Under the pieces are notes generated by a model, which worked only from the letters and a program-made list of their open reading frames with translations, was not told the DNA's origin and did no database searches. From Candidatus Nomurabacteria bacterium (GTDB taxonomy: Bacteria > Patescibacteriota > Minisyncoccia > Phycocordibacterales > UBA918), in NCBI GenBank assembly GCA_020632095.1, contig JACKGF010000001.1, positions 930,713 to 994,712 of the forward strand: a stretch of 64,000 bases of DNA. The letters run 5' to 3'. This document shows, piece by piece, positions 50,282 through 64,000 of the stretch (the stretch's first letter is position 1; each line of letters starts with the position of its first letter). Made by a program: the position numbers and the translations under genes.

Positions 50282-50770
50282 TCTTATTTTCTCCAGTCAA
50301 AAAACATTTCAACCTATAGTAAAGATTATTTAATCACACAAGTCAATCATAGGTTAGGTCATTTAAATTTTTGAAACGGATAGAATATTGAATGATAACA
50401 AATTCATGTTTTGTTTCTTTTTTGTTTCTTGTGAATTGAATTGTAAAAAACGGCCCGGTGTTTATTCCGGGCCGAGGTTGACATTGCTTAGACGCCAAAA
50501 TTTTGCTTAGTTAGGCGATCGATGGTGCCATCACCCCACATTTTCAACAAAACGGCGTTAAAAGTTTCCCGCAGATTGCCAGGTGTATCGGTTTCATCAC
50601 AAGAGTTTTGCAATCTGAACGGCGTTTAGGGTCGCACCCTTCAGTACTTAGTCGCCTACGACCCAGATAATCACAAAGCCACCGCTCTGTTGAGCGGTGG
50701 CTTTGTGATTTCAAGTCCTAAAAAGTTTCTTTAGCCCGAAATACTAAATATTGAGAATGAAATAGACACT

Positions 50771-51133
50771 TTGCTTAGCAGAGTTACCAAGACAGAAAAC
50801 CAAAGCCTAATAAAAATATATGAAGATAAGATTACTAGTGCGCAAAGGAAAAAAGTAAAGCTACAGAATAGTAAGACCATTAGCAAAAGAACCAAAGAAG
50901 AATTTAGAACCGCCTTAGATGAGGTGATGGGTTGTGTTAAAAGCCCTTACAATACATGGCTGAATGGAGGCTTTAACGACAAAAGACTAGTATTATTACT
51001 AGTCTTTGTCGAGCCTATTGTATATAGCGTAGAAAATGGATTTAGAACCACAAATCCGTCGCATATTTTAAGGTTGTTTGAGGATTTTGTGTTTACAAAC
51101 TCCCAAGATGTGGAAGACTTTGCACCAAGTTAG
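50771..51133 (+). pseudogene. C-terminal fragment of a large serine recombinase (paralogous to 56627-58243)
   Basis: LNGGFNDKRLVLLLVFVEPIVYSVENGFRTTNPSHILRLFEDFVFTNSQDVE aligns with the last 60 aa of the intact recombinase (WDSDSLDDKRLVIKLVF...VIRLFERIRATNSQDVE); no catalytic domain present. Confidence 0.6.
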
Positions 51134-51191
51134 AACCTGTTTGATTGAAATGGAGTGTGCAAATTTTCTTAAGGTAGTTGACTTGTGGTGA

Positions 51192-51467
51192 TTATTTCAT
51201 TGAAACCTGCAGTGATAGATCAAGTGCTTTTGCAATTTTGTGTAGTGTTTGTAGGGAAGGGTTACCTTCGCCTCGTTCGAGTCTAGAAATAACTGGCTGA
51301 CGGCTACCAACAGCCTCTGCGAGTTGTGTCTGAGACCAGCCACGCTTAATACGTTGGTTGATGATAGTTTTAACCACTTCATACTCAGGTTCAAGAGCAT
51401 CGTATTCAGCTTTCACTGCGGGGTTCTTGAGAGCCTTGTTTTTAAATTGGTTGAATGTAGTTGTCAT
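51192..51467 (-). CDS. HTH-XRE antitoxin (HigA-like)
   Basis: RGWSQTQLAEAVGSRQPVISRLERGEGNPSLQTLHKIAKAL helix-turn-helix; downstream partner of the toxin gene. Confidence 0.65.
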   Translation of the reverse strand: MTTTFNQFKNKALKNPAVKAEYDALEPEYEVVKTIINQRIKRGWSQTQLAEAVGSRQPVISRLERGEGNPSLQTLHKIAKALDLSLQVSMK

Positions 51468-51493
51468 GAGTTAAATATAACTTATAAGTTATA

Positions 51494-51799
51494 TTACTGC
51501 AAGTTTTCTTTTGTTTCCCGTGCTCTTGTCAGTTCCTTCTCTAGGGTCCTTTGAGTTTTCTTTATACAGGAGTGCAGTAGGACGGCTTTATTTTTATGGA
51601 AACAGTAGAATATTCTGATTTCTCGTTTACCTCGAATACGCAGTTCTAACAAACCATCATCCATATGTCTACTGTGAGGCATTCCCAATTTATTTCCAAA
51701 TTCTTCCAATAGTTCAATAGTACGAATGACTTTAGCGATTTCTTTCTCATTCAGTTTTTCAATAAATGTTTCAACTGAATTTAGTAGATCAATTTGCAT
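51494..51799 (-). CDS. HigB/Gp49-like (RelE superfamily) toxin
   Basis: KVIRTIELLEEFGNKLGMPHSRHMDDGLLELRIRGKREIRIFYCFH matches Gp49-like addiction-module killer proteins; toxin-then-antitoxin order. Confidence 0.6.
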   Translation of the reverse strand: MQIDLLNSVETFIEKLNEKEIAKVIRTIELLEEFGNKLGMPHSRHMDDGLLELRIRGKREIRIFYCFHKNKAVLLHSCIKKTQRTLEKELTRARETKENLQ

Positions 51800-51880
51800 G
51801 TATTCAGTATAGCAAAATAAAAAACCTACTCAAAAGTAAGTTTTTTATTCTTCCATATATTTCTATGTTTATGTGGAGAT

Positions 51881-51897
51881 GGGGGGATGAACCTGAC
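51881..51897. repeat. 17-bp direct repeat ATGTGGAGATGGGGGGA (copy of ssrA 3' end plus recombinase stop-proximal codons); distal att-like junction
   Basis: Identical 17-mer at 58182-58198; similarity extends with a 2-bp indel (ggggggaTGAACC vs ggggggaatTGAACC). Confidence 0.7.
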
Positions 51898-51994
51898 GGT
51901 TACTAAGCTATTTTTCTTCACTGCGTTCGAAAACTAGCAAGTGCCGCGGGTCACGCCTCATTCGTTCGTCATTCTTCCTCACATCATTCTGGCG

Positions 51995-52037
51995 GTTCAA
52001 TTCCCACGTGAAGCGCGCAGGCGCTTCACTCCCATCT
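51995..52037 (+). other. inverted ssrA-3'-end-like fragment (GGTTCAATTCCC...CCCATCTCCACCA) with 25-nt hairpin insertion
   Basis: 12/12 match to T-loop region and 12/12 to acceptor 3' strand of the minus-strand ssrA, but on the plus strand, ending in CCA, with gtgaagcgc-gcag-gcgcttcac inserted. Confidence 0.5.
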
Positions 52038-52304
52038 CCACCAAAAAACAAAAAACGTCCAAAAGGACGTTAATGTTTTAAAAGTGGACATAGCTAAAAA
52101 CGAGTGGAACCAAATAGAAAGCTACATATTCGAGTCGTACCATATGATACAGGGGCTAAAAATGCGAGATATAGCAACGGTATCATAATGAATTAGTACC
52201 ACAGTGTAGTAATAGAAACACTAGAACAAAAAGAAAAAAGAATTTCATTTATCCGGATAACTACTATAGGGGCATGTGCTCATTCGTTGTAGAATTGAAA
52301 TAAC

Positions 52305-53366
52305 ATGAAAAAGAAACCTAGTTCATTGAAAGCTGTTGACTTCTTCTGTTCTGGAGGAGGAATGACAAATGGTTTAATTCAAGCTGGTATTGAGGTAGTT
52401 GCTGGTATCGATAATGACCCAATTTGTAAGGAAACGTATGAGGCGAACAACCCAGGAGCAGAATTTATACTAGAAGACGTCTTTGATCTTGAGGAGAAAA
52501 AACTTGCTAAGAAACTAGACTTAAAAAAGAATGATGACGATCTTATCCTGATAGGATGTAGCCCATGTCAGTTTTGGTCAATCATCCAGACTGACAAAAC
52601 AAAATCTGAAAAATCGAAGAATCTATTAATCGAATTTCAAAGGTTTGTTAAATACTTTAACCCAGGTTATGTACTGGTTGAGAATGTGCCGGGTATATTA
52701 AATCGAAAAGAGGAGAGTGGCTTGAAAAAGTTTGTCGATGATCTGGAGAATGATAGTTATGTGGTTCACTACGATATCGTAAACATGAACGATTATGGAG
52801 TGCCACAAGCAAGGCGCAGATTTTCTCTGATCGCTACACGATTACAAGATGTTCCTATAAAGTTAAGTCCGAAAAAGAAAAAACTAACACTTCGTGACGT
52901 TCTTGGTGAAGCTAATGGATTTCCAAAAATTGGACCCGGTCATGTAGACAAAAGTAGTCTTCAGCACTCAACAGCAAAGCTGACTGAAATAAATGTAAAA
53001 AGATTAAAGAAGACTAGGAAGAATGGTGGGTCTTGGCTTGATTGGGCAGATGATCCAGAACTAAAAAGAAAGTCTTATCGAGGTAAAGATTTCAAAGATA
53101 ATTATGGACGTATGAGTTGGGATAAGCCAGCCCCAACAATAACCACAAAATACATCAGTGTTTCTAATGGTAGATTTGCCCACCCAGATGAGAACAGGGG
53201 AATTTCAGTAAGAGAAGGTGCAACAATCCAAACTTTTCCTAAAAACTATGAATTCCGCACAGCATCTATTGCGTCAGCCGCAAAAATTGTTGGCAATGCT
53301 GTTCCCCCTGCCTTTGCAAAAACACTCGGAAAGAGTATTGTAAAGGCACATGCCACAAGAAAATGA
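52305..53366 (+). CDS. dcm: DNA (cytosine-5)-methyltransferase
   Basis: Motif I FFCSGGGMTNG, motif IV GCSPCQFWS, motif VI ENVPGIL, conserved C-terminal QTFP...GNAVPP. Confidence 0.85.
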   Translation: MKKKPSSLKAVDFFCSGGGMTNGLIQAGIEVVAGIDNDPICKETYEANNPGAEFILEDVFDLEEKKLAKKLDLKKNDDDLILIGCSPCQFWSIIQTDKTKSEKSKNLLIEFQRFVKYFNPGYVLVENVPGILNRKEESGLKKFVDDLENDSYVVHYDIVNMNDYGVPQARRRFSLIATRLQDVPIKLSPKKKKLTLRDVLGEANGFPKIGPGHVDKSSLQHSTAKLTEINVKRLKKTRKNGGSWLDWADDPELKRKSYRGKDFKDNYGRMSWDKPAPTITTKYISVSNGRFAHPDENRGISVREGATIQTFPKNYEFRTASIASAAKIVGNAVPPAFAKTLGKSIVKAHATRK

Positions 53367-55005
53367 GCCACTAAAAATGTCTTTCGATCCTAATACGATC
53401 GAACATTTGGGTGTGCGAATGTACTCAACTATACCTCCAGTCTTGGCGGAGCTTATTGCAAATTCTTATGATGCTAATGCCAAAGAAGTGCATATACAGC
53501 TGAACGACACTGACAGTAAAGAAATCATTGTTTCCGATAATGGTCATGGAATGAGCAAAGAGGATATTAATGGAAAATTCCTTCGCATTGGTAGGAATAG
53601 AAGAGACGGAGGTGATACTGCAGAGGAGGGTAGCAGGAAGCCAATTGGAAAGAAGGGACTAGGTAAGCTTTCTTTCTTTGGTATCGCAGATGAAATCGAA
53701 GTTGTTACAGTTCGAAATAATCTCAAGAATGTCTTCTTGATGAAATGGGATGATATAAAAAATACTGAAGACGGAAAGAATTATGAGCCGACAGTAATTG
53801 TTGATAATGAGTCAACAGAAGAGGAGAATGGAACTTCCATTGTTTTAAAAAACATACGGCGCACTAGTGATTTTGTGGCGCAAGACCTCGCTGTGTCGTT
53901 GTCGAAGGTCTTTGTTGTAGACAAAACATTTGGAATTTTTGTCAGACGCAATGAAGAAGATCCTGTTCAGGTAGATAACAAGATGAAATATGATGGTCTC
54001 AATGTAGAGGTTGAGTGGAATGTGCCATCTGACGTGTCTCTAGAGTCAGAATACCCTAATAAGGGAGATGTTACTGGGCACTTGATTTCAACAGAAAAGC
54101 CGATTTCCCCGCAGACGAATATGCGAGGAATAACACTTTTCTCTAGAAACAAGATGGTTAATTTGCCAGAATATTTTTCTGACAGTACTTCCAGTCACTT
54201 TTACTCGTATCTTACCGGGGAGCTACATGTTGATTTTATTGATGAGCTTGATGAAGATGTTATCGGAACTGATAGACAGTCTCTCAATTGGGGTCAGCCA
54301 GAAATGACCGAGCTAAGAGATTACTTACGTTCACTGATGAATTGGCTCGAAAGAGACTGGCGTACAAAAAGAGAAACAAAGAGACAGGAGAAACTAGATA
54401 AACAGCTAGGTATTAAAACTGACGAATGGTTTGGAACAATGCCTGATGATATAAGAGCCCAAGCCGAGACGATCGTTAAAGCAATTGTTAAGGACTCAGA
54501 ATTACCAGAAGAAATCGGATCTGCAGCCGTAAAAAGTTTTCATGCTCTCGTGCCAGAGTATCCTAAATACTATTGGCGACACCTGCATGATGAGGTTAAG
54601 GATGCATCTAGTGAATATTATCAATCAGGCGATTATTACCATGCGTTTATTGAAGCTTCAAAGAGATACGTAAATGCAGTTAGAGCAAAAGCTGTAAGGA
54701 CAACACGTGATGAGCGTGCACTTATGCAAGAAGTATTCCCAGAAGCAAGTCCTATCTTGTCGGTGACCGAAGGTTACCTAAAGCCAGATGGTAATGAATT
54801 TACGGCAGATACATTGAAAAACATCCGGGTGGCTCAACAAATGTTCTCTGAAGGTGTAATCTGCGGAGGTAGACATCCGATATCTCATGAAGAAATCGTT
54901 GACTTACGTGAGTCGGAATTATTTACAGAAAAGGATTGTTTAGACGCCCTAAGTCTTTTGTCGCATCTGTTCTGGAGACTCGAACATTCAACGAAGATGC
55001 GGTAA
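53350..55005 (+). CDS. GHKL-family (HATPase_c, MORC/MutL-like) ATPase with alpha-helical C-terminal domain carrying an Rx4H (HEPN-like) motif
   Basis: N-box ELIANSYDA, G1 DNGHGM, G2 GKKGLGKLSFFG; C-terminus GGRHPISHEE; translationally coupled to dcm (16-nt overlap). Confidence 0.6.
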   Translation: MPQENEPLKMSFDPNTIEHLGVRMYSTIPPVLAELIANSYDANAKEVHIQLNDTDSKEIIVSDNGHGMSKEDINGKFLRIGRNRRDGGDTAEEGSRKPIGKKGLGKLSFFGIADEIEVVTVRNNLKNVFLMKWDDIKNTEDGKNYEPTVIVDNESTEEENGTSIVLKNIRRTSDFVAQDLAVSLSKVFVVDKTFGIFVRRNEEDPVQVDNKMKYDGLNVEVEWNVPSDVSLESEYPNKGDVTGHLISTEKPISPQTNMRGITLFSRNKMVNLPEYFSDSTSSHFYSYLTGELHVDFIDELDEDVIGTDRQSLNWGQPEMTELRDYLRSLMNWLERDWRTKRETKRQEKLDKQLGIKTDEWFGTMPDDIRAQAETIVKAIVKDSELPEEIGSAAVKSFHALVPEYPKYYWRHLHDEVKDASSEYYQSGDYYHAFIEASKRYVNAVRAKAVRTTRDERALMQEVFPEASPILSVTEGYLKPDGNEFTADTLKNIRVAQQMFSEGVICGGRHPISHEEIVDLRESELFTEKDCLDALSLLSHLFWRLEHSTKMR

Positions 55006-55069
55006 GATTACATTATCTCCGCAATGGAGTTACAACACCTAACCCTCGCAAGAGATATGGTGCACAGAA

Positions 55070-55137
55070 TCCCACGCTAGTAGAAACGACCGTATAAGTC
55101 GGCACTTACTAGCGTGGGTTCACATCCGAAAGGATGT
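55070..55137 (+). other. tandem stem-loops downstream of the GHKL gene (12-bp stem cccacgctagta/tactagcgtggg, then cacatccgaaaggatgtg)
   Basis: Seen directly; a third copy of cccacgctaga at 55209-55219. Confidence 0.5.
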
Positions 55138-55222
55138 GGGATAATTCTCGAAAGAGAGTTGTCGTCGGTCTTGTGCGGTCGTTTGTGTACACAGGATCGA
55201 AATTAAAACCCACGCTAGAAAT

Positions 55223-55468
55223 ATGAATATTAAAAAAGTATTAAAGTACTTGGTGATTGTGGTATGTATTGCCATAATCATCTTGTTGCTTGCCGCTTAT
55301 TCCTCTGCTAAATCTGATTATCGAACTGCAGGAAAGCATTGTGACAACTATGCACGAGAGCAGGCAGGATCAAGAGGAGGTATGGTTACGTTGTATGAGC
55401 CATTGTACGTTTCTTGTATGCGATCCAATGGATATCTACTAGATGTCAGAGAAATGGAGTCAAATTAG
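55223..55468 (+). CDS. small membrane-anchored protein
   Basis: 81 aa with N-terminal TM helix. Confidence 0.3.
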   Translation: MNIKKVLKYLVIVVCIAIIILLLAAYSSAKSDYRTAGKHCDNYAREQAGSRGGMVTLYEPLYVSCMRSNGYLLDVREMESN

Positions 55469-55950
55469 GTTGTGTACCACCAAAGAAGAATAGCTAGGAA
55501 TTGATTGTAGAAAGCATGGATCAACAAAGGAATAATCAATGCGAAAGCATAGTACCTCTTCGATTTTAGTCTCACAGCACGATCAAACATGACTGCCATA
55601 GCCACGCCGGCAATTGCGTGCATCCATGGAGTAATTAGACTTGCTGTCCCATTCGGGAACCAGAAGTGGGTCAACTGCTCACCAAAACCATACCCAAGAC
55701 CAATAAATGCGATTGTAAGAGGAATTGCGCCGAGTCTGAGGGTTATGAGCGCAAATACGAATTTGAGCGATTCTTCGAGCAGTGCGCCGTATACAAACAA
55801 GCGCCATGGCACATCAGGGAATTCAAAGCGTAATAGTACTTCAAAGTGTAAAAACATCAGTACTATTCCAGAGACAAATAATGTAAAAGCTTGCAGGTAT
55901 CTTTTCATACAGACAATCATAACTTGAAAACTTGAAAAAATAGACTCCAA
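55465..55950 (-). CDS. small polytopic membrane protein (CPBP-like?)
   Basis: 161 aa, 4-5 TM helices, LLEESLKF and HxxxG-like segments weakly reminiscent of CPBP/Abi proteases. Confidence 0.3.
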   Translation of the reverse strand: MESIFSSFQVMIVCMKRYLQAFTLFVSGIVLMFLHFEVLLRFEFPDVPWRLFVYGALLEESLKFVFALITLRLGAIPLTIAFIGLGYGFGEQLTHFWFPNGTASLITPWMHAIAGVAMAVMFDRAVRLKSKRYYAFALIIPLLIHAFYNQFLAILLWWYTT

Positions 55951-56478
55951 TCAAGTTTAAGTCAGTTGAATTCCTTGAAAAAAATCACTCTATTCAACCA
56001 ACTTACAAACTGAAAAAACTGATTAAAATGTACTTAATCAGTTTCTGTAAACTTTGAAAAGATTGAAAAAAAGAGACTAATTCAATCTCTCCACAAGTAG
56101 ACACAAAAATGACAATTGCTTATTACAAACAGACGTATATACTGAGAGTAACAACTGAATATCTTAAGCTCTAGTGAGAGAAATGTTACTTGATTTGATT
56201 GAATCTGGCTTGGCGAGGCAAAATAATACGTGTGAAGACATTGTCCCTGGTAGTACGCTCTGGGTCGGACAGCATCAGAAAGACTATTTGTAACATCATG
56301 TCTTATCTCACATAAGAGGACGTATGTACTACGTTGAGCGGGTGCCTCTGAGAATCGTCTTGAATGGAAATTCGAGATGGTTCTCAGGGGTATTTTTGTT
56401 GGATTAAAGTCAGCCACACATTGTCCCGCTTTTGTTGGGTAGGTCGAGTGGCTGAACTTACCTAACAAAAGATGGATA

Positions 56479-56649
56479 ATGTTATCGATAGAAGAGTGTC
56501 GCCAGCACCTAAATGATCCAGAGTTAACCGATGAGAAGGTCGAAGAGATTCGTGATGTTCTGTACAGTTTTGCAGAAAGTGCACTAGATAAACACCTGTT
56601 TAGCGGTAGTGTGTCCTTGCAAGACAATGGCGAAGAAAAAACAAATTAA
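56479..56649 (+). CDS. small acidic alpha-helical ORF overlapping the recombinase start (unannotated, 56 aa)
   Basis: MLSIEECRQHLNDPELTDEKVEEIRDVLYSFAESALDKHLFSG...; below the ORF-track cutoff; ends 23 nt into the recombinase gene. Confidence 0.2.
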   Translation: MLSIEECRQHLNDPELTDEKVEEIRDVLYSFAESALDKHLFSGSVSLQDNGEEKTN

Positions 56650-58243
56650 TAAAGTGATGGCTCTCATTTATTGTCGAGTATCGTCAGACAGGCAGATGCA
56701 AGAGGGTCATGGGCTAGATAGTCAAGAGCAACGCTGTAAAAAGTATGCGCTTGAGCATAACTATGGAGTAGAAAAGGTATTCAGAGACAGCTACACAGGC
56801 GGTGGTGATTTTATGAAGAGACCTGCGATGGCTGATATGATTTCATACATTGAGAAAAAGCCATACACAAACTATGTCGTGATCTTCGATGATACAAAAC
56901 GATTGGCACGTGATCACATGGAGTATTGGCGACTAAGAAACTTGTTTAAGTCTCTGGAAGCTGAAGTTGAATCACCAAACTTTAGCTTTGGTGACACGGA
57001 AGAATCTTGGCTTCAGGAAGCTATAACAGCTATCTTCAGTGACTTCGAAAGAAGGTCGAACAAACGACAGGTTAATCAGAAGATGCGTGCCAGGTTAGAA
57101 TCTGGTTACTGGACATTTAATTCAACAGAAGTACCGGGCTATAAGAGGAAAGATTTGCCTGATAAAACTTGGATCCTTGTTAGGAGTGAACCGAAGGCAA
57201 GCATTATTAAAGAAGCATTGGAAGGTTATGCAAATGGCAGGTTTGACACTAAGACAGACGTACAAAAGTTTCTCCAGAGGAAAAATTATCTAGCAGAAAA
57301 CAAACAAAAAAGAGTTTACCTATCTAGAGTAGATCGGCTACTTGAAAGATCATGGTTGTATGCTGGATTTATTGAGCATCTCGAATGGGAGGTGGAGCGT
57401 CGTATAGGTAAGCACGAGGCAATCATTACTCTGGAGGTATTAAAGAGAATTGAAGATAAGTTACAGAATAAAAGCAGGGTGCGAATCCGTAAGGATTACA
57501 ATGAAGACTTTCCGTTAAGACCGCATGTGCTATGTGCTGGTTGTGGCAAGAAACTAACAGCAAGTTGGACTAGGGGAAGGAGCGGAACTTATCATCCGTA
57601 TTATAGATGTAGTAACGACTCGAAAGTGTGTCCATATGGAAATAAGAGCATACGAAGGGAAGCGATGGAAACGGAGTTTAGGGAGTTGCTTACCAGTCTG
57701 AGACCCAATCAGGGGGTTGTGTCGTTGACTCGAGCAATATTAGATGACCTGTACAAAAAGAAGCATTCTGAGACAGAAGGGTATCAAGCTGATATTGATA
57801 AGCAACTAAGGAAGTTGGATACTGAAATTGAAAAGTTGATGGACCGAGCAATGAATACAAAGAATGAGATCATGGCTGAGAGGTATGACGAACAAGCTTC
57901 GAAACTAATAGAGGAAAAAGAAAAGTTGCTAGAGAATAACAGTAAATCGGATAACTTCGATGTGGACTTTGGAACCGCCTGTGATGAAGTGATGTCAGTA
58001 ATAAATAATCCAGTAAACAAATGGGATTCTGACAGTCTTGATGATAAAAGACTAGTAATAAAGCTGGTTTTCGATGGTGATCCTACATATGACAAAATCC
58101 ATGGCTTTGGAACCACGGATTTGTCATGTGTTATAAGGTTATTTGAGAGAATTCGTGCTACGAATTCCCAGGATGTGGAGATGGGGGGAATTGAACCCCC
58201 GTCCGAATTAGGGTGCGATTGTGAATCTACAGTGTGTAGCTGA
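56627..58243 (+). CDS. large serine recombinase (resolvase/invertase N-domain + recombinase domain + zinc ribbon + coiled coil); C-terminus reads into the tmRNA gene
   Basis: ALIYCRVSSDRQ catalytic-Ser motif, zinc ribbon CAGCGKKL...YYRC; last 17 codons (MGGIEPPSELGCDCESTVCS) are translated from ssrA 3'-end DNA; start set at MAKKKQ (56627). Confidence 0.8.
   Translation: MAKKKQINKVMALIYCRVSSDRQMQEGHGLDSQEQRCKKYALEHNYGVEKVFRDSYTGGGDFMKRPAMADMISYIEKKPYTNYVVIFDDTKRLARDHMEYWRLRNLFKSLEAEVESPNFSFGDTEESWLQEAITAIFSDFERRSNKRQVNQKMRARLESGYWTFNSTEVPGYKRKDLPDKTWILVRSEPKASIIKEALEGYANGRFDTKTDVQKFLQRKNYLAENKQKRVYLSRVDRLLERSWLYAGFIEHLEWEVERRIGKHEAIITLEVLKRIEDKLQNKSRVRIRKDYNEDFPLRPHVLCAGCGKKLTASWTRGRSGTYHPYYRCSNDSKVCPYGNKSIRREAMETEFRELLTSLRPNQGVVSLTRAILDDLYKKKHSETEGYQADIDKQLRKLDTEIEKLMDRAMNTKNEIMAERYDEQASKLIEEKEKLLENNSKSDNFDVDFGTACDEVMSVINNPVNKWDSDSLDDKRLVIKLVFDGDPTYDKIHGFGTTDLSCVIRLFERIRATNSQDVEMGGIEPPSELGCDCESTVCS
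58182..58198. repeat. 17-bp direct repeat, proximal copy overlapping ssrA 3' end
   Basis: Identical to 51881-51897. Confidence 0.7.
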
Positions 58244-58579
58244 TTCCTTGGGTTTAAAATCATTTGCTTGAGAACGAGCAAAACACAAATGATTCGAGTT
58301 GTTTAATTCTTAGTCGCCTACGACAACGGCAAAGGTAACCATAGTCTCGTGTTTATTCTACGAGAAGTGCCGTATGAGACGTTTAACACTTTCGCATCGA
58401 TCCGGCAGGCGTATGATTACGCAAATGCGGGAGCGAATCCAAACGCGTTAGCGTAAGGACTTACTATTGCTTTTTTTGCAAGTAGATAGTGGAACCTTTT
58501 AACGAATTGATTACCAATTTCGACACTGCACACAACCGACACGACTAACCGTCGATGCCGAGCATCCCCTCAGTGGTAG
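58185..58579 (-). ncRNA. ssrA: tmRNA (transfer-messenger RNA)
   Basis: Minus strand: 5' GGGGAUGCUCGGCAUCGACGG (cf. E. coli GGGGCUGAUUCUGGAUUCGACGG); G3:U70 wobble and A73 Ala identity; T-arm GGGGGUUCAAUUCCCCC; internal tag ORF GCU AAC GCG UUU GGA UUC GCU CCC GCA UUU GCG UAA (ANAFGFAPAFA*); smpB 950 bp upstream. Confidence 0.7.
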
Positions 58580-58719
58580 CGGGTGAGGTCTTCCGAGGGA
58601 AGACCTCACCCGTGAACACTGAGGGACGTATGTACAAATTAAATTTAGTTACAGAAAGGTGATAGGGAAGGAATATTTTCTTCCCTATAAGAAAGCAGTC
58701 TGCAAGGCTGCTTTCGGGG

Positions 58720-59070
58720 TTAATGAATGGTTTTGGAAGTTCTTAAGGAACAGTCTGCCCACCGCTCAACTTGTTGTCTGAGGTATGAGCACGATACGAG
58801 GTCGGTACAAGTGCAAGTACTTTGTTCGACCAAGATGCTAAGGGCGGCCGCAAAGCGAAGTAAGTGTCCGTGGTAACGCTCCACTAAGACCGCTTGAAGC
58901 TTGACCTCTAAGCGGTCATTTTCGTCACCAATGGCGCGCATTAGTCCGTCGGTGAAGTCGTCGGGGTCCACGACTTCAACCTCGCTTGCACAGGGGCGTT
59001 TCACTTCCGTCATATCAAACATCCGATTCTCCTTGTGATACAGGATAATGAATCGATGGAACAGGCTCAC
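58720..59070 (-). CDS. Cys-rich small protein, paralog A (ends ...CSLRTSKTIH)
   Basis: 116 aa; GC-richer than the genome; shares its C-terminal octapeptide with the next ORF. Confidence 0.35.
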   Translation of the reverse strand: MSLFHRFIILYHKENRMFDMTEVKRPCASEVEVVDPDDFTDGLMRAIGDENDRLEVKLQAVLVERYHGHLLRFAAALSILVEQSTCTCTDLVSCSYLRQQVERWADCSLRTSKTIH

Positions 59071-59110
59071 TCCTGAACCACCTTTCTATAACCAAATTTA
59101 GTATTTATGA

Positions 59111-59128
59111 AATTGAATGTAAGACGGT
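59111..59128. repeat. 18-bp inverted repeat, left arm (AATTGAATGTAAGACGGT)
   Basis: Perfect reverse complement at 59509-59526; extends to 21/22 including flanking GG. Confidence 0.7.
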
Positions 59129-59217
59129 AGGTCGGACAGCAAGCTGGGCGGCTTGTTGTCCGACATAAGGTGCACTACTCCAGCCGTCCTTTACAAAGGT
59201 TTGGAGGGTGCCGGTTG

Positions 59218-59472
59218 TTAGTGGATGGTTTTGGAGGTTTGGCAGTCGCAATAGCCTTCCATTCCGAATGTGACAAAATACGAAAGTTGTTCATCCGTAA
59301 GATTAAGATAATGAGCCGATCTTCCCAGTTCTGCCAACTCTAAGTGACAGACTTCACATTGGGTTCGTTGTTCAGAAGGGCAGTCTGAATTCACCATAGC
59401 ATGGAGTTCCTCCTTTAATTTTTTGAGTTCCTCATCAATTGTAGGGTCTCCCAGCTTGTGTGCGATACACAT
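59218..59472 (-). CDS. Cys-rich small protein, paralog B (ends ...CDCQTSKTIH)
   Basis: 84 aa with CxxC (CEVC) and CDC; flanked by the inverted repeat. Confidence 0.35.
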   Translation of the reverse strand: MCIAHKLGDPTIDEELKKLKEELHAMVNSDCPSEQRTQCEVCHLELAELGRSAHYLNLTDEQLSYFVTFGMEGYCDCQTSKTIH

Positions 59473-59508
59473 GACCTATCCTTTCATTACTTGTGGGCAA
59501 AATTACCC

Positions 59509-59526
59509 ACCGTCTTACATTCAATT
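59509..59526. repeat. 18-bp inverted repeat, right arm
   Basis: ACCGTCTTACATTCAATT, reverse complement of 59111-59128. Confidence 0.7.
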
Positions 59527-59971
59527 ATTGAGATTTCAAGGTGCGGTTGATTTCGCGTTTGACGTCGCGGGCTTTGATGGATTCACGTTTATCGTGTTTC
59601 TTCTTACCACGTGCTACGGCGACTTCGAGCTTGATTTTCTGCTTATTATTGTACAACCTAACAGCCATAGCTGTCAAGCCAGCTGTTTCGGTTTGGTTTT
59701 CGAGCCGAGCAATTTCTTTTTTGGATAAAAGGAGTTTACGCGGTCGTTCACTGTCGTAGCTTTTGGGAGTGTTGACTGGCTGGAAGGCAGTAATATGAGC
59801 ACCAACCAAGTAGGCTTCACCACCACGTACGATTACATAAGCGCCTTCCAGCTTACCTTTCTTGGCGCGAATACCCTTAACTTCATATCCGTGCAACACC
59901 AAACCAGCTTCAAAAGTCTCAAGGATGTCGAAGTCAAAGCGGGCTTTTCTATTTTGGATATAAGTTGTCAT
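59525..59971 (-). CDS. smpB: SsrA-binding protein SmpB
   Basis: 148 aa; RKARFDFDILETFEAGLVLHGYEVK...GAHI SmpB signature and basic C-terminal tail. Confidence 0.85.
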   Translation of the reverse strand: MTTYIQNRKARFDFDILETFEAGLVLHGYEVKGIRAKKGKLEGAYVIVRGGEAYLVGAHITAFQPVNTPKSYDSERPRKLLLSKKEIARLENQTETAGLTAMAVRLYNNKQKIKLEVAVARGKKKHDKRESIKARDVKREINRTLKSQ

Positions 59972-60025
59972 ATATTAGATGTTTCAACTAGTAATGATAC
60001 TATATTAAAAACCTAAAATATAAAA

Positions 60026-60940
60026 ATGATTTTCGAAGGCGACCATTCAGTAGTAGAGGCAATTAAAGAAAAAAAGCGTCTAATGGACGCCGGTAAAGAG
60101 CATGATCACATCAGGCCTTTATTGATTCAGGGTGGGGGATTGATGCGGGGAGCTTACGGCGCCGGAGCCTCCTTGGCTTTAGAAGAACTTGGCTATACCA
60201 ACACATTCACTTCGATGGTAGGGATTTCTTCTGGCGCTCCATTAATAGCTTATTTTGCCGCAGGTAATGCCAAGGTAGCCAAGTCTATTTTTATTAAAGA
60301 TTGTGCAGATAAAAGATTTGTAAATGTTTGGCGATTTTGGAATCAGGCCGACACTAAATATTTAATCAATATTATTAGCTCAGATGAAAAGAAAAAATTA
60401 GATTTTGATAAAGTTTCGAGTAATCCAGCTGATTTATATATAGGAGTCTCAGAATTTGAAACTGCCTTACCTAAATTACTAAAACCTAAAAACGTTTACC
60501 ACTTTTTTGATTCTGTGCACGCTTCGATAAATATGCAGAACGTATCGCCACATAAAGTTATTATTGACGGTGTTCATTATGCTGACGGAGGTTTCACTAA
60601 ACCTCATATGTTTACTGAAGCATTGAAAGAGATTGATGCTACTCACATTCTTATTATTACAAATAATGATAAGAGATTTACCCCAATTTCAATAATAGAA
60701 AAAATTATGAATCGGACGTTATTTAGGTTTAGGTTAAATGGGGTATTAGCTCAAGCAATTAATAGTCGGCGAGAAGAACGTGACAAAGCGATTGCTGGGG
60801 CGATGAAAAGTGATAATGCGGTGGCGGTGGTTTGGGGTGATTGCTCGATTCATGGGATGGAAAACAATCCACAAAAAATAGCAGCTACCATTGAAGCTTC
60901 GCGTACTTGGTGGCACGGTTTGTTCTCATTAGAGAAATAA
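60026..60940 (+). CDS. patatin-like phospholipase
   Basis: GGGLMRGAYGAG oxyanion motif and GISSGA (GxSxG) nucleophile elbow. Confidence 0.75.
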   Translation: MIFEGDHSVVEAIKEKKRLMDAGKEHDHIRPLLIQGGGLMRGAYGAGASLALEELGYTNTFTSMVGISSGAPLIAYFAAGNAKVAKSIFIKDCADKRFVNVWRFWNQADTKYLINIISSDEKKKLDFDKVSSNPADLYIGVSEFETALPKLLKPKNVYHFFDSVHASINMQNVSPHKVIIDGVHYADGGFTKPHMFTEALKEIDATHILIITNNDKRFTPISIIEKIMNRTLFRFRLNGVLAQAINSRREERDKAIAGAMKSDNAVAVVWGDCSIHGMENNPQKIAATIEASRTWWHGLFSLEK

Positions 60941-60986
60941 GCGAAAACGTGGTATTTCGAGCTGTTTTCTGTATAATAGCCCTCAT

Positions 60987-63104
60987 ATGAATAAGCCTGA
61001 AAATACCGAAGAATTGAAGGAAGTAGAGACCGGTACGCCAGAAGTCCCGGTTGAATCAGATGAAAAAACGCCAGATTCAAACCAAATAGAACCTTCGCCG
61101 ATCCCTAGAGCAGAAAAAGCTGAGAAAGGAGAAAAGAATAGTTCTAGTTTAAGAGATATTGGTAAAAAAATGCCACTTGGTCCGGGCAATTTTTGGAACA
61201 ATATGCTGTCGACGGTTCTGTTACTTATTTTTGTAACAGCGTTATTTTCCTATGTAACCGAAAATCAAGTTAAGCCAGAAGAGCTAACTATCACAGATGT
61301 TGTTAGTCAAGTAAAGGCTGGTGAAGTTAAAACTATTATCGTACGGGGTGCGATGTTGGAAGTTTCATACAATGACGATACTAAGACACCTGGTGAAGCC
61401 AAGCGGGAAGTAGACGCTTCAGTTACTGAGTCACTTACTAATTTGGGTGTGACTCCGGAGGAGTTGTCTAAAATTTCGATTGATGTCCAGCGTGAGACAG
61501 GCTTCATGTATTGGTTTAGTAACTTTGCTCCGTTCTTATTCCCATTGTTATTTCTCGGGGTGATTATTTGGTTTTTCACTCGTTCAGTTAAGGGTGCTGG
61601 TATGCAGGCAATGAGTTTTGGAAATTCCAAAGCTCGTATGATCGACCCTAATGACCTTAGTCAGAAGGTGACTTTCAAGGATGTGGCAGGAGCTAAGGAA
61701 GCTAAGCAAGAGTTGGAAGAAATTGTTGATTTCCTAAAGAATCCAAAAAAGTTTCTTGATATTGGTGCTGAGATTCCAAAGGGAGTAATGATGATGGGGG
61801 CGCCAGGTACTGGTAAGACACTGCTTGCTCGAGCGGTGGCTGGAGAGGCTGGTGTGCCATTTTACTCAATTTCTGGTTCTGAGTTTGTGGAGATGTTTGT
61901 GGGAGTTGGTGCTTCGCGAGTGCGAGACCTGTTTCAGATGGCTAAGAAGTCAGCTCCTTCAATTATCTTCGTGGATGAAATAGATGCGGTAGGGCGAGTG
62001 CGTGGGACTGGTGTTGGGGGAGGAAACGACGAACGGGAACAAACTCTCAATCAGATCTTGGTTGAGATGGATGGCTTTGAGCCAAACGCAAAAGTAATCG
62101 TGATGGCGGCCACTAACCGTCCAGACGTACTCGACCCAGCCCTATTACGACCTGGTCGATTCGACCGACGTGTCACTATCGATCTACCAGACCGTAAGGA
62201 TAGAGAGGCTATACTAACTGTACATGCGCGTAAGAAGCCACTGCAAGAAGATGTGAATTTGGAAATTATTGCTAAGCGGACACCTGGTTTTTCTGGGGCT
62301 GACTTGTATTCACTGATGAACGAAGGAGCGATTCTGGCGGCTCGTGAGAAACGAAAGAAAGTTGGTCAGTTTGACTTGATTCGTTCAATTGAAAAGGTCA
62401 TGCTTGGTCCAGAGCGAAAAAGTCACGTATTAACTAAGTATGAAAAAAGAGTCACTGCTTATCATGAAGTAGGTCATGCTTTGGTGGCTTCGGTTTTACC
62501 GTACGCTGACCCAGTACAAAAGGTATCTATCATTTCTCGTGGACGGGCGGCTGGCTACACACTTAAGCTGCCAGACCAAGACCGCAGAATGCATACTAAG
62601 AAGGAATTTCTGGACGATATCGCGATGACGCTCGGCGGTTATGTGACTGAAGAAATGGTCTTCGGCGATCTTTCAACTGGTCCATCAAATGACCTTCAGG
62701 TCGTAGCCAACATAGCGAGGGATATGGTGACTAAGTATGGTATGAGTGAGACTTTAGGAGCAGTGGCTTTTGAAGGGACTGGTGGCCGGATGATCGGCGG
62801 CGGCTTGTCTGAGGATAGAGGCTATTCGGAAAAAGTGGCTAAAGAGATTGACGATGAGGTGGCACGGATTATAGAGGAAGGAAAAACTCGAGCGAGAGAA
62901 ATCTTGACTAAGTACCGAACAGCTTTGAATTCTATTTCAGAAAAGTTGGTAGAAGTTGAAACTTTAGAAAGGGAGGAATACGAAACTCTATTGAAGCAGC
63001 AAGGAGTTGAAATAAAGGATGTTTATACCGATATGTATAGTGAAGAACAGAAGGTTGGAGATCCGACGAAAAGTTTGGAGACTCCGGTGAAGGAGGTTGA
63101 GTAG
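60987..63104 (+). CDS. ftsH: ATP-dependent zinc metalloprotease FtsH with extended N-terminal region
   Basis: Walker A GAPGTGKT, second region of homology, HEVGHAL zinc motif; 705 aa. Confidence 0.85.
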
Positions 63105-63118
63105 AAAGAGTAAATAAA

Positions 63119-63150
63119 AGAGTGGCGGCCCGTAGGGCCGCCACTCTTTT
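63119..63150 (+). terminator. rho-independent terminator after ftsH
   Basis: agagtggcggcccgtagggccgccactctttt. Confidence 0.65.
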
Positions 63151-63207
63151 ATTTACATCTGTCCACCATGGATAGAAGCTAATATTATTGGACTGAAATT
63201 TCCTATG

Positions 63208-63280
63208 TCCGCCCGCCAGGACTCGAACCTGGGACCACGAAGGTATAAGCTTCGCGCTCTACCAACTGAGCTACAGGCGG
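63208..63280 (-). tRNA. tRNA with anticodon UAU (Ile-like body, would read AUA)
   Basis: Reverse complement folds as CCGCCUG-UA-GCUC AGUUGGUA GAGC-G-CGAAG CUUAUAC CUUCG-UGGUC-CCAGG UUCGAGU CCUGG-CGGGCGG-A; D-arm/T-arm nearly identical to bacterial tRNA-Ile; unusual C1:G72. Confidence 0.6.
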
Positions 63281-63418
63281 ACATAATAAACTTCAATCTA
63301 TTTAATTTATCTTAGAAGCCAAATGTCTTAAGGTTGATTCCAAGGTTCAAATTATAAGCTTCGCGCACTACTTGGACAAGTGAGGAAAAATATGGAAGTT
63401 TACTTACATATTATTTCC

Positions 63419-63470
63419 GAACGCAGTTCAAGAAAGCTTGCTTACCAACTGAGCTATGGATGGATGTTGG
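63419..63470 (-). other. partial duplicate (5' half) of the adjacent tRNA; tRNA-like remnant
   Basis: Shares TAGCTCAGTTGGTA (14/14) and a degraded anticodon-stem region with the tRNA 150 bp away; no matching 3' acceptor strand. Confidence 0.3.
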
Positions 63471-63750
63471 TACCAAGTACTATATCGTAAACAGGGTTAG
63501 TTCACAATCTAACAAATAACCATTTACTTTTTTATGATCCTAGAGTATAAAATATAAGGACGGTATTGATTTCGTCCTCTTTCCAACATCAGAAATGGAG
63601 AAGGAAATGAAATTAGAGATTGGTAATTCAATAGACAGGGTGGTTGACAGAAAGGGGGTGATCCAGCCGTTATCTGTAGACAGAACCTAATCCATACAGT
63701 GGATTAGAGAAGTCTGTCTCAGAGGTTAACCGCCTCTTAAGAAAAATTTG

Positions 63751-63780
63751 GCCCAGCACAGTCTGGGCCGTTTTTTTTTT
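63751..63780 (+). terminator. rho-independent terminator
   Basis: ggcccagcacagtctgggcc hairpin followed by T10. Confidence 0.65.
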
Positions 63781-64000
63781 GCTATTTATGAATTTTTCTT
63801 GTGTTATTTAAATAACGGGAAATTTTAGTTGCAAAGTATGATTAAATCTAGTTTGATGTATAAAGTCCAGTTATGTTATTTTAGGTTCTACAAAACACAT
63901 AATACTTACAGGAGAAATGACCAATGAGTATCATAGGAGTGAGTGTAGGCAAAAAGTTTGATTGGTACATATCCGGAAAACCTAATGCAACAAGAGATGA

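Follow-up and report, generated by a model that had tools for sequence, protein, structure and literature searches.

A serine-integrase island at the 3' end of ssrA in a Candidatus Nomurabacteria genome, with a predicted attP inside the integrase gene

Why does the gene for a large serine recombinase (LSR) run into the 3' end of a transfer-messenger RNA (tmRNA) gene, and which of the adjoining DNA belongs with it? This question is raised by a stretch of 64,000 nucleotides from Candidatus Nomurabacteria bacterium (NCBI GenBank assembly GCA_020632095.1, contig JACKGF010000001.1, positions 930,713 to 994,712 of the forward strand), hereinafter the window, from whose first letter all coordinates are counted. 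Its tmRNA gene, ssrA, which we regard as the integration target, lies on the minus strand (58173..58569 according to Rfam RF00023, 109.8 bits; 58175-58569 according to ARAGORN) and encodes the tag peptide AKKAIVSPYANAFGFAPAFA. The LSR gene (56627..58243, +) codes in its integrated form for 538 amino acids, starting at ATG 56627 or GTG 56609 and ending with a stop codon at 58241-58243 (+). Our answer, which we hold with a probability of roughly 0.78, is that an array has accreted at the 3' end of ssrA, and that its proximal part, approximately 52084-58179, is an intact integrative element of 6.1 kb with the core GTGGA and an attP located inside the integrase gene.

A first-pass annotation, made from the sequence alone, had observed that the LSR gene ends within the minus-strand ssrA, and this is borne out by ARAGORN, Rfam RF00023 and Pfam. 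It had further derived the last 17 codons of the recombinase from ssrA DNA; the frame indeed crosses into ssrA, but the overlap comprises 66 nt plus the stop, i.e., the final 22 sense codons (MGGIEPPSELGCDCESTVCS and neighboring residues) are read from the antisense strand. Profiling of the protein, which that annotation had recommended, recovers in Pfam a Resolvase catalytic domain (PF00239, 1.7e-19, residues 18-167) and a Zn_ribbon_recom domain (PF13408, 2.2e-6). PF07508 is undetected by Pfam in the window protein, though it is listed for most of its homologs. The catalytic motif YCRVSSDRQ is kept across the family alignment, and the AlphaFold (AF2) model of the homolog P0103 has long paired helices (345-393 and 397-424) after the β-rich zinc-ribbon region. 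The protein has the domains of a large serine recombinase, namely a resolvase domain accompanied by a zinc ribbon and a coiled coil.

The closest database proteins come from Patescibacteria, with the NCBI names Candidatus Kaiserbacteria for the LSR and Nomurabacteria for SmpB. We recovered 1163 homologs of the LSR (more than 1100 at E <= 1e-10, among the candidates scored), and a scan of one genome per species yielded 489 relatives, from which 80 loci were fetched, 70 of them with sequence beyond the open reading frame (ORF). In 56 of these 70 loci, the 3' end of an RNA gene on the opposite strand overlaps the end of the LSR ORF by 5-68 nt. The RNA gene is a tmRNA in 30 cases and tRNA-Ala in 12, followed by tRNA-Met (5), tRNA-Arg (3), tRNA-Leu (2) and one each of tRNA-Phe, Val, Ser and Tyr; nine of the remaining loci show by eye a tmRNA-like 3' end missed by ARAGORN. 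An alignment of 21 homologs has the C-terminal end ...NS.DVEM(G/A)GIEP(P/A)SE, which matches a tRNA-like T-arm plus acceptor translated from the opposite strand, and such an antisense tail from tRNA or tmRNA is present in 97 of the 120 best homologs. The layout of the window is one case of a clade-wide habit, in a large clade of which little has been described. The targets in Patescibacteria are tmRNA and tRNA-Ala, and the clade reaches Proteobacteria, where it uses other tRNAs. The first-pass annotation was fair in calling a serine recombinase with its own codons in the att site unusual, but it is not unprecedented, given the Dehalococcoides ssrA islands (PMC3146451) and the majority of the clade loci themselves. 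A literature search found no description of such elements in Patescibacteria. A phage origin was considered and set aside: the best phage integrases are only 24-26% identical, and nothing points to a phage.

The proposal of a mobile island at the 3' end of ssrA, likewise made at the outset, holds up well against relatives in which the same backbone carries different cargo. The locus L081 has the same methyltransferase-GHKL cargo at the same site with 86% nucleotide identity, and its smpB is only 70% identical at the DNA level. L083, with an LSR 80% identical to that of the window, has the same backbone (left-end element, LOOT RNA, membrane gene and LSR), a different cargo in the form of a 1191-aa protein, and infC-rpmI-rplT as its left flank. 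In L213 (SmpB 82%), the LSR is accompanied by an OLD-family ATPase-nuclease as cargo. A further related species, L216 (SmpB 78%), has no recombinase downstream of ssrA. L218 is a circular episome contig of 12,376 nt (55-nt terminal overlap) coding for Prim-Pol/AAA_25, ParB and a kinase, together with a LOOT RNA and an LSR of the family, and it carries no tRNA or tmRNA gene. Comparison with related genomes, which had been advised for this locus, provided a site without the LSR in L216 but no empty site in the same species. The evidence supports a horizontally mobile island that a large serine recombinase has inserted at the 3' end of ssrA.

Where the attP of this element would lie is suggested by a small conserved segment at its other end. 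From 52084, the window reads GTGGACATAGCTAAAAACGAGTGGAACCAAATAGAAAGC, directly after a bidirectional terminator and ~200 nt inside the distal copy of a 17-mer discussed below. Here, the attL core GTGGA (52084-52088) and the P' arm (together 52084..52188, +) also constitute a 34-codon, GTG-initiated micro-ORF (MDIAKNEWNQIESYIFESYHMIQGLKMRDIATVS). The element was found in 17 loci, on the strand of the LSR and 4-7 kb upstream of it. Across the loci, it comprises 28-40 codons from a GTG start, with the conserved beginning MDIVxKSWNQIESYIFESY, and one aromatic position stays Y, W or F via different codons. A promoter or RNA motif (under the label 'E2') was rejected as an explanation, since the element proved coding. 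In 8 of the 120 best homologs, the peptide is fused in frame as the C-terminus of the LSR itself, following ...(D/L)V(D/E) and replacing the RNA-derived tail; one of these eight is the LSR of the circular episome L218, and two others lie on contigs that carry no RNA gene. The GTG in the ...GAT GTG GAG of the window LSR shares its frame with the GTG of the micro-ORF, and joining the two in silico at GTGGA gives an LSR of 550 amino acids that ends ...TNSQDVDIAKNEWNQIESYIFESYHMIQGLKMRDIATVS. From the fused homologs, including that of the circular episome, and from this in-frame reconstruction, we conclude that the attP of the free form probably consists of the LSR 3' end, GTGGA and the tail-coding segment, and thus would lie within the integrase gene. 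The ssrA-derived codons then appear to be a junk tail gained on integration, with the native C-terminus apparently encoded 6 kb away. In most of the 17 loci, the stop of the micro-ORF is followed by the motif TAyCACA-N5-7-GTAATAGAAC. In the window, it belongs to a conserved non-coding stretch upstream of the first cargo gene (52190..52304, +), a candidate promoter or operator; the region 52084-52246 is conserved in L081 and L083.

The attR core GTGGA (58175..58179, +) is the reverse complement of UCCAC, the last acceptor bases of the RNA plus the discriminator A. In L213, attL and attR have only GTGGA in common, and junctions of the form LSR 3' end/GTGGA/micro-ORF occur naturally; hence, the GTGGA at 52084 is most likely the functional left end of the island. 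As the core of recombination, the GTGGA formed by the final bases of ssrA is the most likely. A 22-nt arm, CTTCTATATATTTCCATGTCTG, directly precedes GTGGA in the window, L213 and L216, each time with a different right-hand partner. Both tmRNA and tRNA-Ala carry the G3:U70 alanine identity pair, which accounts for GTGGA being common to the two genes, and their shared UCCAC end explains why the Patescibacteria members use exactly these targets. Every tmRNA and tRNA-Ala target in Patescibacteria reads GTGGA-N13-GAACC. In other words, GAACC, the complement of the T-loop GGTTC, occupies positions +14 to +18 from the GTGGA end in all B' arms of that phylum. It occupies +19 to +23 in 17 of 17 P' arms of the micro-ORF (E2) type, and likewise in an older element of the array, E1 (51110-51191). 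The offset between P' and B' is exactly 5 bp, in the same direction as in the Listeria integrase, for which the motif bound by the zinc-ribbon domain lies 5 bp nearer the center in attB than in attP (PMC3783163). This offset in the expected direction supports GTGGA as the core and 52084 as the real attL. As far as can be read from the arms, the site seems to obey the serine-integrase att rule of a short core with a 5-bp motif shift on the P'/B' side only. The predicted inner attP, LSR end/GTGGA/CATAGCTAAAAACG, would read ...CCCAGGATGTGGACATAGCTAAAAACG... (in longer form ...CGAATTCCCAGGATGTGGACATAGCTAAAAACGAGTGG...), and the matching repaired site ...TTTTAAAA/GTGGA/GATGGGGGGAATTG (in longer form ...GGACGTTAATGTTTTAAAAGTGGAGATGGGGGGAATTGAACC...).

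The anatomy of these sequences suggests the following cycle. The LSR would recombine an attP within its own gene, ~33 codons before the stop, with an attB formed by the extreme 3' end of ssrA, the core GTGGA corresponding to UCCAC, the G3:U70-type acceptor end of tmRNA and tRNA-Ala. The B' arm would be the DNA of the acceptor and T-arm with its universal GGTTC motif, which recurs 5 bp further out in the P' arm, and this offset may be how the serine integrase tells attP from attB. Integration would spare ssrA and detach the tail-coding segment, which is left as the GTG-initiated micro-ORF at the far (attL) end, and the integrated integrase would receive 22 junk codons from ssrA antisense DNA in its place. 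As ssrA is assumed to be strongly transcribed, the head-on course of the integrase gene into it probably silences the integrated copy, and excision would restore the full-length LSR gene. Cargo would be accommodated in a slot between the micro-ORF region and the LOOT RNA, which is here taken by a probable type II restriction-modification pair.

A different delimitation of the element is suggested by the direct repeat that the first-pass annotation took for both of its ends. The 17-mer ATGTGGAGATGGGGGGA is indeed present in exactly two copies in the window, 6302 nt apart, and two copies were seen in 0 of 100 shuffles; the copies are at 51871-51887 and 58173-58189, the positions first given for them (51881-51897 and 58182-58198) being 9-10 nt too high. 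Past the 17-mer, the distal copy reads TGAACC and ssrA reads AATTGAACC. The 2-bp indel reported there is thus present, but the two copies diverge thereafter. The distal copy is part of a 213-bp non-coding module between an older cassette and the island (51871..52083, +; fold z-score -5.5). The order in this module is the copy of the ssrA 3' end (51871-51887), ~100 variable nt, a degenerate copy, in inverse orientation, of the T-loop and acceptor end of ssrA (GGTTCAATTCCCAC...TCCCATCTCCACCA; 51995-52041), which is split by a hairpin of 9 bp with the loop GCAG (52008-52029), then an A-run and finally a bidirectional terminator (52054-52071, from a terminator scan). This layout, with its inverted repeat, recurs in L083, L006, L027, L028 and L030. 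Modules of the same design (~200 bp) precede the micro-ORF in ~10 of 16 loci, and in these modules both copies match the RNA gene that is the local target, be it tmRNA or tRNA-Ala. Members of this module family adjoin tRNA and tmRNA 3' ends both with and without islands, as at L209:905-1220 and L083:3939-4258 and in L003, L006, L011, L014, L033, L036 and L041. The hairpin unit, whose GCAG loop is invariant, follows the pattern CGCTCCGnnTTCnAnTCCnCACG-stem-GCAG-stem-CT; across 11 examples, its pairs are 100% Watson-Crick with no G-U, and 7 of the 9 show compensatory changes, values reached by 0 of 500 shuffles. A palindrome this strict points equally well to a hairpin formed in the DNA, to an inverted repeat bound by a protein and to an RNA. 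A second tmRNA or tRNA on the + strand at 51875-52046, with an acceptor-like stem and an ACCA end, was also entertained and dropped: ARAGORN and Rfam (E up to 10) gave no match, the third base pair of the stem is A-U rather than G-U, and an inverted DNA copy of the ssrA end is preferred.

If the outer repeats were the true boundaries, a single 6.3-kb island (51871-58189) would have arisen by crossover within the repeat, in the T-loop/acceptor region familiar from classical tRNA islands, supplying a replacement 3' end to ssrA and having the 213-bp segment as its left end; the circle junction would then read ...CCCAGGATGTGGAGATGGGGGGATGAACCTGACGG... and the empty site ...TTTCTATGTTTATGTGGAGATGGGGGGAATTGAACC.... 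The presence of the exact 17-mer only twice in the window speaks for this, as do repeats of 15-20 nt from the RNA 3' end spaced 3.5-10.9 kb apart in several relatives, the frequent contact between module and micro-ORF (~10 of 16 loci) and the Dehalococcoides islands, which have been described with 20-bp ssrA repeats and an insertion point in the T-loop (PMC3146451). However, the ends of L213 share nothing beyond GTGGA, and the module is absent from the circular L218 and from the fused-form contigs L220 and L221, in which the LSR is joined straight to the micro-ORF. Further, two module copies adjoin a tRNA-Ser without any island in a sister strain (L209:905-1220), the module of L019 sits between the LSR and ssrA, and its left end lacks a correctly spaced GAACC (a 2-bp shift here, GTCAC in others). 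The stop after the 17-mer that an outer-repeat circle would create (DVEMGG*) was considered as a conserved feature and discarded, as it is not kept in L083. Because the module is missing from circular and fused-form contigs, occurs free of the island in L209 and intervenes between LSR and ssrA in L019, it is an entity separate from the island; the distal 17-mer reflects the module's own copy of the ssrA end, parted from ssrA by entry of the island at GTGGA. That the 17-bp repeats are the two ends of one element is therefore quite unlikely.

Several points weigh against an intact element with its core at GTGGA. The identity of the outer sites over 17 bp is exact and still compatible with recombination there; the core is resolved to the 5-mer GTGGA and not to the exact crossover dinucleotide; neither the P nor the B arm has a matching GGTTC motif in the mirror position; and no recombination directionality factor, which serine integrases need for excision, was recognized among the island ORFs. 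The tail of the fused-form homolog is modeled by AlphaFold as a low-confidence helix (predicted local distance difference test, pLDDT, 51-69) after a disordered linker. Look-ups with identical and 95%-identical SmpB found no empty site or circular junction for this species, the contigs being occupied, ending inside ssrA or having an insertion sequence (IS) at 56417. In a strain 99.3% identical over 56417-64000 (L209, L210), this DDE_Tnp_1 IS abuts 56417 and everything to its left differs, so that the LSR there is without the cargo side; the IS has replaced it, and the element may be decaying rather than active. Some of these observations would fit a fixed relic, in which the recombinase and its neighbors are no longer mobile in the lineage and are kept by the restriction-modification pair as an addiction module, the layout recording past events. 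The missing empty site and circle, the loss of the cargo side to the IS, the older remnants alongside, and a 6-kb element with no replication or transfer gene by Pfam of its ORFs are all consistent with that. In contrast, the element has kept its LSR ORF, its micro-ORF and both cores intact, along with the conserved catalytic motif YCRVSSDRQ, and a near-identical island exists in a species with smpB only 70% identical. We consider the relic somewhat unlikely, and it bears on present activity, not on the identity of the element. Recruitment of the recombinase by the host, as an invertase or regulator acting on ssrA expression with the overlap serving antisense control, would account for the conservation of the convergent overlap in the family and for the inverted copy of the ssrA 3' end nearby. 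However, the family targets many different tRNA genes, travels with variable cargo and is represented on a circular episome that has no RNA gene, and one related species is devoid of the LSR altogether, which makes such a role highly improbable. We thus continue with the integrative element bounded by GTGGA at 52084 and 58175.

The cargo of this element begins with a type II C5 cytosine DNA methyltransferase (52305..53366, +; PF00145 8e-59, PADLOC MTase_II 4e-90, TIGR00675 above cut-off). It is followed by a candidate restriction enzyme of the GHKL-ATPase type (53350..55005, +), with HATPase_c_3 (9e-22) and a C-terminal Hypoth_Ymh domain (1e-12). The latter protein matches PADLOC REase_II (3e-33) and NF050001 (BbrUII/HgiDII) with 1e-72 and 245.7 bits, which is below the 550-bit cut-off and covers residues 9-380 only, the C-terminal (Ymh) domain being different. 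The first-pass annotation correctly recognized a dcm-type methyltransferase, a GHKL ATPase and small membrane proteins with no relation to the flanking genes; we further read the first two as a probable type II restriction-modification pair, in which the GHKL partner is the candidate restriction enzyme. Just past the cargo, the conserved backbone starts with a LOOT RNA (Rfam RF03000; 55036..55163, +), which scores 56.5 bits against a gathering score of 46.4. Its counterparts in related elements, scoring 62-92 bits, are found at L081:2978-3105, L083:8066-8194, L013:9051-9187, L047:8916-9034, L014:8288-8406, L036:9323-9460, L221:4020-4138 and, on the circular episome, L218:4858-4978. In all, 9 of the 12 tmRNA-type or free-form elements examined carry the RNA, and Rfam did not detect it in the LSR-less locus L216 or in four islands of the tRNA-Ala type. 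A literature search found no stated function for LOOT RNA; it looks like a component of these serine-integrase elements. The backbone continues with a predicted membrane ORF of 81 aa (55223..55468, +; from the ORF list), partly within a segment conserved in L083 (55014-55234), and with a 161-aa polytopic membrane protein on the minus strand (55465..55950), which has a weak PrsW-like match (E = 0.005). The region 55676-58258 is conserved in L081 and L083. An ORF of 56 aa (56479..56649, +) overlaps the LSR start codon and has a counterpart in L081, where the C-terminal part of the ORF preceding the LSR is 86% identical to it. No family match was found for it or for the micro-ORF; it is a candidate regulator or directionality factor, and these two ORFs are the only candidates for the latter role.

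To the left of the island, the array retains older elements, and reads from left to right: LSR remnant, GTGGA 51110, cassette, GTGGA 51873, 213-bp module, GTGGA 52084, island, GTGGA 58175, ssrA. The first-pass annotation had asked how a fragment at 50771-51133 compares with the C-terminus of the recombinase. It proves to be the C-terminal remnant of a second, earlier LSR gene (50771..51109, +), which aligns with 57965-58179, has a translation ending ...TNSQDVEDFAPS and is joined at GTGGA to E1. This junction of a remnant with a P' arm resembles an attP and might be expected from the entry of a second element into the attR of one already in place; the remnant is probably a trace of such tandem accretion. 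The integrase-less cassette that follows (51110..51870, +) is conserved next to the ssrA arrays of L213 and L216. It starts with GTGGA (51110-51114) and the P'-type E1 element, which extends to 51191, and contains an HTH antitoxin-like gene (51192-51467, −; HTH_3) and a Gp49/HigB-like gene (51494-51799, −; Pfam Gp49). It closes with a bidirectional terminator (51808-51857), after which the conserved 22-nt arm abuts the next core. Two more integrase-less cassettes, with ORFs of 93 and 142 aa, are present in L216. Such GTGGA-to-terminator cassettes downstream of ssrA resemble a cassette array built by a serine recombinase. Left of the remnant, a 16-mer at 50647-50662 is the same as an internal stretch of ssrA (58309-58324; blast E = 0.14) and adjoins a perfect 19-bp hairpin (50669-50710); it may be due to chance or be the trace of an older rearrangement.

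On its right, the island is flanked by the housekeeping genes smpB, patatin and ftsH. A tRNA-Ile with the anticodon UAU lies at 63207-63280 (−), and such a gene is also near ssrA in many relatives (L002, L015, L016, L019, L024, L029 and others). A number of hairpins were observed around the LSR and ssrA. Within the 3' end of the LSR gene, immediately before the core, is the palindrome GAATTCGTGCTACGAATTC (58153-58171, +), whose counterpart in L083, GAATTGGTGCTACCAATTC, has C and G exchanged in a compensatory manner; it could belong to the P arm or form a hairpin at which read-through from ssrA is processed or terminated. An inverted repeat of 28 nt, 89% complementary (58567-58625), overlaps the ssrA 5' end and extends into the DNA upstream, with a similar hairpin in L216. 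A hairpin with a 20-bp stem followed by a T-run (56344-56391, +) precedes the 56-aa ORF at the LSR start by ~90 nt and may be involved in insulating or controlling integrase expression.

The nearest described systems are the Dehalococcoides ssrA islands with the serine recombinase DsiB (McMurdie et al. 2011; PMC3146451). Like the window, these have an LSR gene next to ssrA that continues at its 3' end across the att site and into ssrA or a neighboring island, direct repeats of the ssrA 3' end, tandem arrays in which some members are integrase-less, and variable cargo. Their authors suggested that the recombinase gene is perhaps complete only on the circular form (PMC3146451). The codons GTG GAG even span the same bases of the ssrA end, in LVETGEG of Dehalococcoides mccartyi P0340 and in DVEMGG of the window. 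However, the two LSRs are only 22% identical (E = 2e-9), as are the window LSR and a related ORF in L150, and the NCBIfam models CcrB, CcrC and XisF score 66-77 bits against the window LSR, with cut-offs of 375-900. The window recombinase is not an ortholog of DsiB (CcrB-like). P0340 and L150:12697-14545 represent a second, unrelated LSR lineage (the Chloroflexota/Dehalococcoides DsiB type) that reads through the 3' end of ssrA in the same register. Pfam found no second resolvase-domain protein (DsiA), ParB or Mom in the window island, and ARAGORN no embedded tRNA. The window further differs in that a conserved peptide, known in fused form from homologs, makes up the detached tail, that insertion would occur at the last bases of the gene (GTGGA) rather than in the T-loop, and that the hosts belong to the phylum Patescibacteria, with the clade also using tRNA-Ala and, in Proteobacteria, other tRNAs. 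The locus works like a DsiB island but is outside that family. The Dehalococcoides-type ssrA 3' end itself had no match in a scan of viral contigs; in metagenomes, it was recovered in 120 loci, most of them without an LSR, one with a tyrosine integrase (L133) and a few with DsiB-type LSRs.

The LSRs of phages such as Listeria A118/LI, Bxb1 and phiC31 share with the window protein the resolvase domain, the zinc ribbon, the coiled-coil helices, the short core and the 5-bp motif shift (PMC3783163). In contrast to these, the window LSR is at most 26% identical (<=26%), has an extra conserved C-terminal domain and a predicted attP inside the integrase coding sequence, and uses as attB the end of an RNA gene, not a protein-coding gene; further, no obvious motif is seen in the mirror half-sites (P, B). 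An attP inside the integrase gene, with a frame changed or split by integration so that the free and the integrated form code for different proteins, is familiar from IntP/IntX of the myxophage Mx8 and from the fusellovirus SSV1, which have tyrosine recombinases. The window differs in its serine integrase and in the survival of the detached part as a separate micro-ORF, which has a GTG start to itself. Among genomic islands at large, Mageeney et al. 2020 listed 14 of 297 with a single serine integrase (S-Int) at t(m)RNA genes, which they called previously unreported and in need of proof (PMC7192596), and in the work on tycheposons a large serine recombinase is carried by 27 of 937 Prochlorococcus elements at tRNA/tmRNA sites (bioRxiv 10.1101/2020.12.28.424599). 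The TIGER/Islander and tycheposon surveys, compared with the window clade by description only, describe no dedicated clade, att architecture or tail swap. With the classical tyrosine-integrase islands of tRNA and tmRNA genes, the window shares the class of target, tandem accretion and preservation of the RNA gene. It differs from them in its serine recombinase, no tyrosine recombinase domain of the Phage_integrase family being detected by Pfam among the island ORFs, and in a predicted crossover at the very end of the gene, not at the anticodon or T-loop.

Joining these observations, we arrive at a broader picture to which we give even odds. A large clade of such integrases, spread widely across Patescibacteria and extending into Proteobacteria, would have specialized on the universal tRNA-like 3' end (acceptor + GGTTC) as its attB. 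The attP would lie in the integrase gene, so that with each integration a conserved C-terminal peptide is swapped for junk and the DNA encoding it ends up at the far side of the element, an arrangement that would act as an inbuilt switch from the free to the integrated state and back. Integrase-less cassettes bounded by terminators and GTGGA would also gather at these sites, as would ~200-bp modules copying the local RNA 3' end both ways around a strictly palindromic GCAG hairpin, and the orphan LOOT RNA would be a component of the elements.

Serine integrases are the main tools for the insertion of large DNA, and tRNA and tmRNA genes have been regarded as the territory of tyrosine integrases. 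Several features appear worth following up: the targeting of tRNA-like 3' ends throughout the clade, att sites that can be read from the sequence, the swap of the integrase tail and the accompanying non-coding module. The window leads to a dedicated clade, with its 489 relatives in one-genome-per-species data, a predicted attP and a natural circular episome, and the legible attB GTGGA-N13-GAACC is shared by all tmRNA and tRNA-Ala genes of the phylum. To our knowledge, Patescibacteria are without genetic tools, for which this clade could supply candidates. The locus would also be a natural case of an integrase whose protein changes with its integration state. LOOT RNA gains a genomic context, and the islands show where defense genes (restriction-modification, OLD nuclease and toxin-antitoxin) gather in very small genomes.

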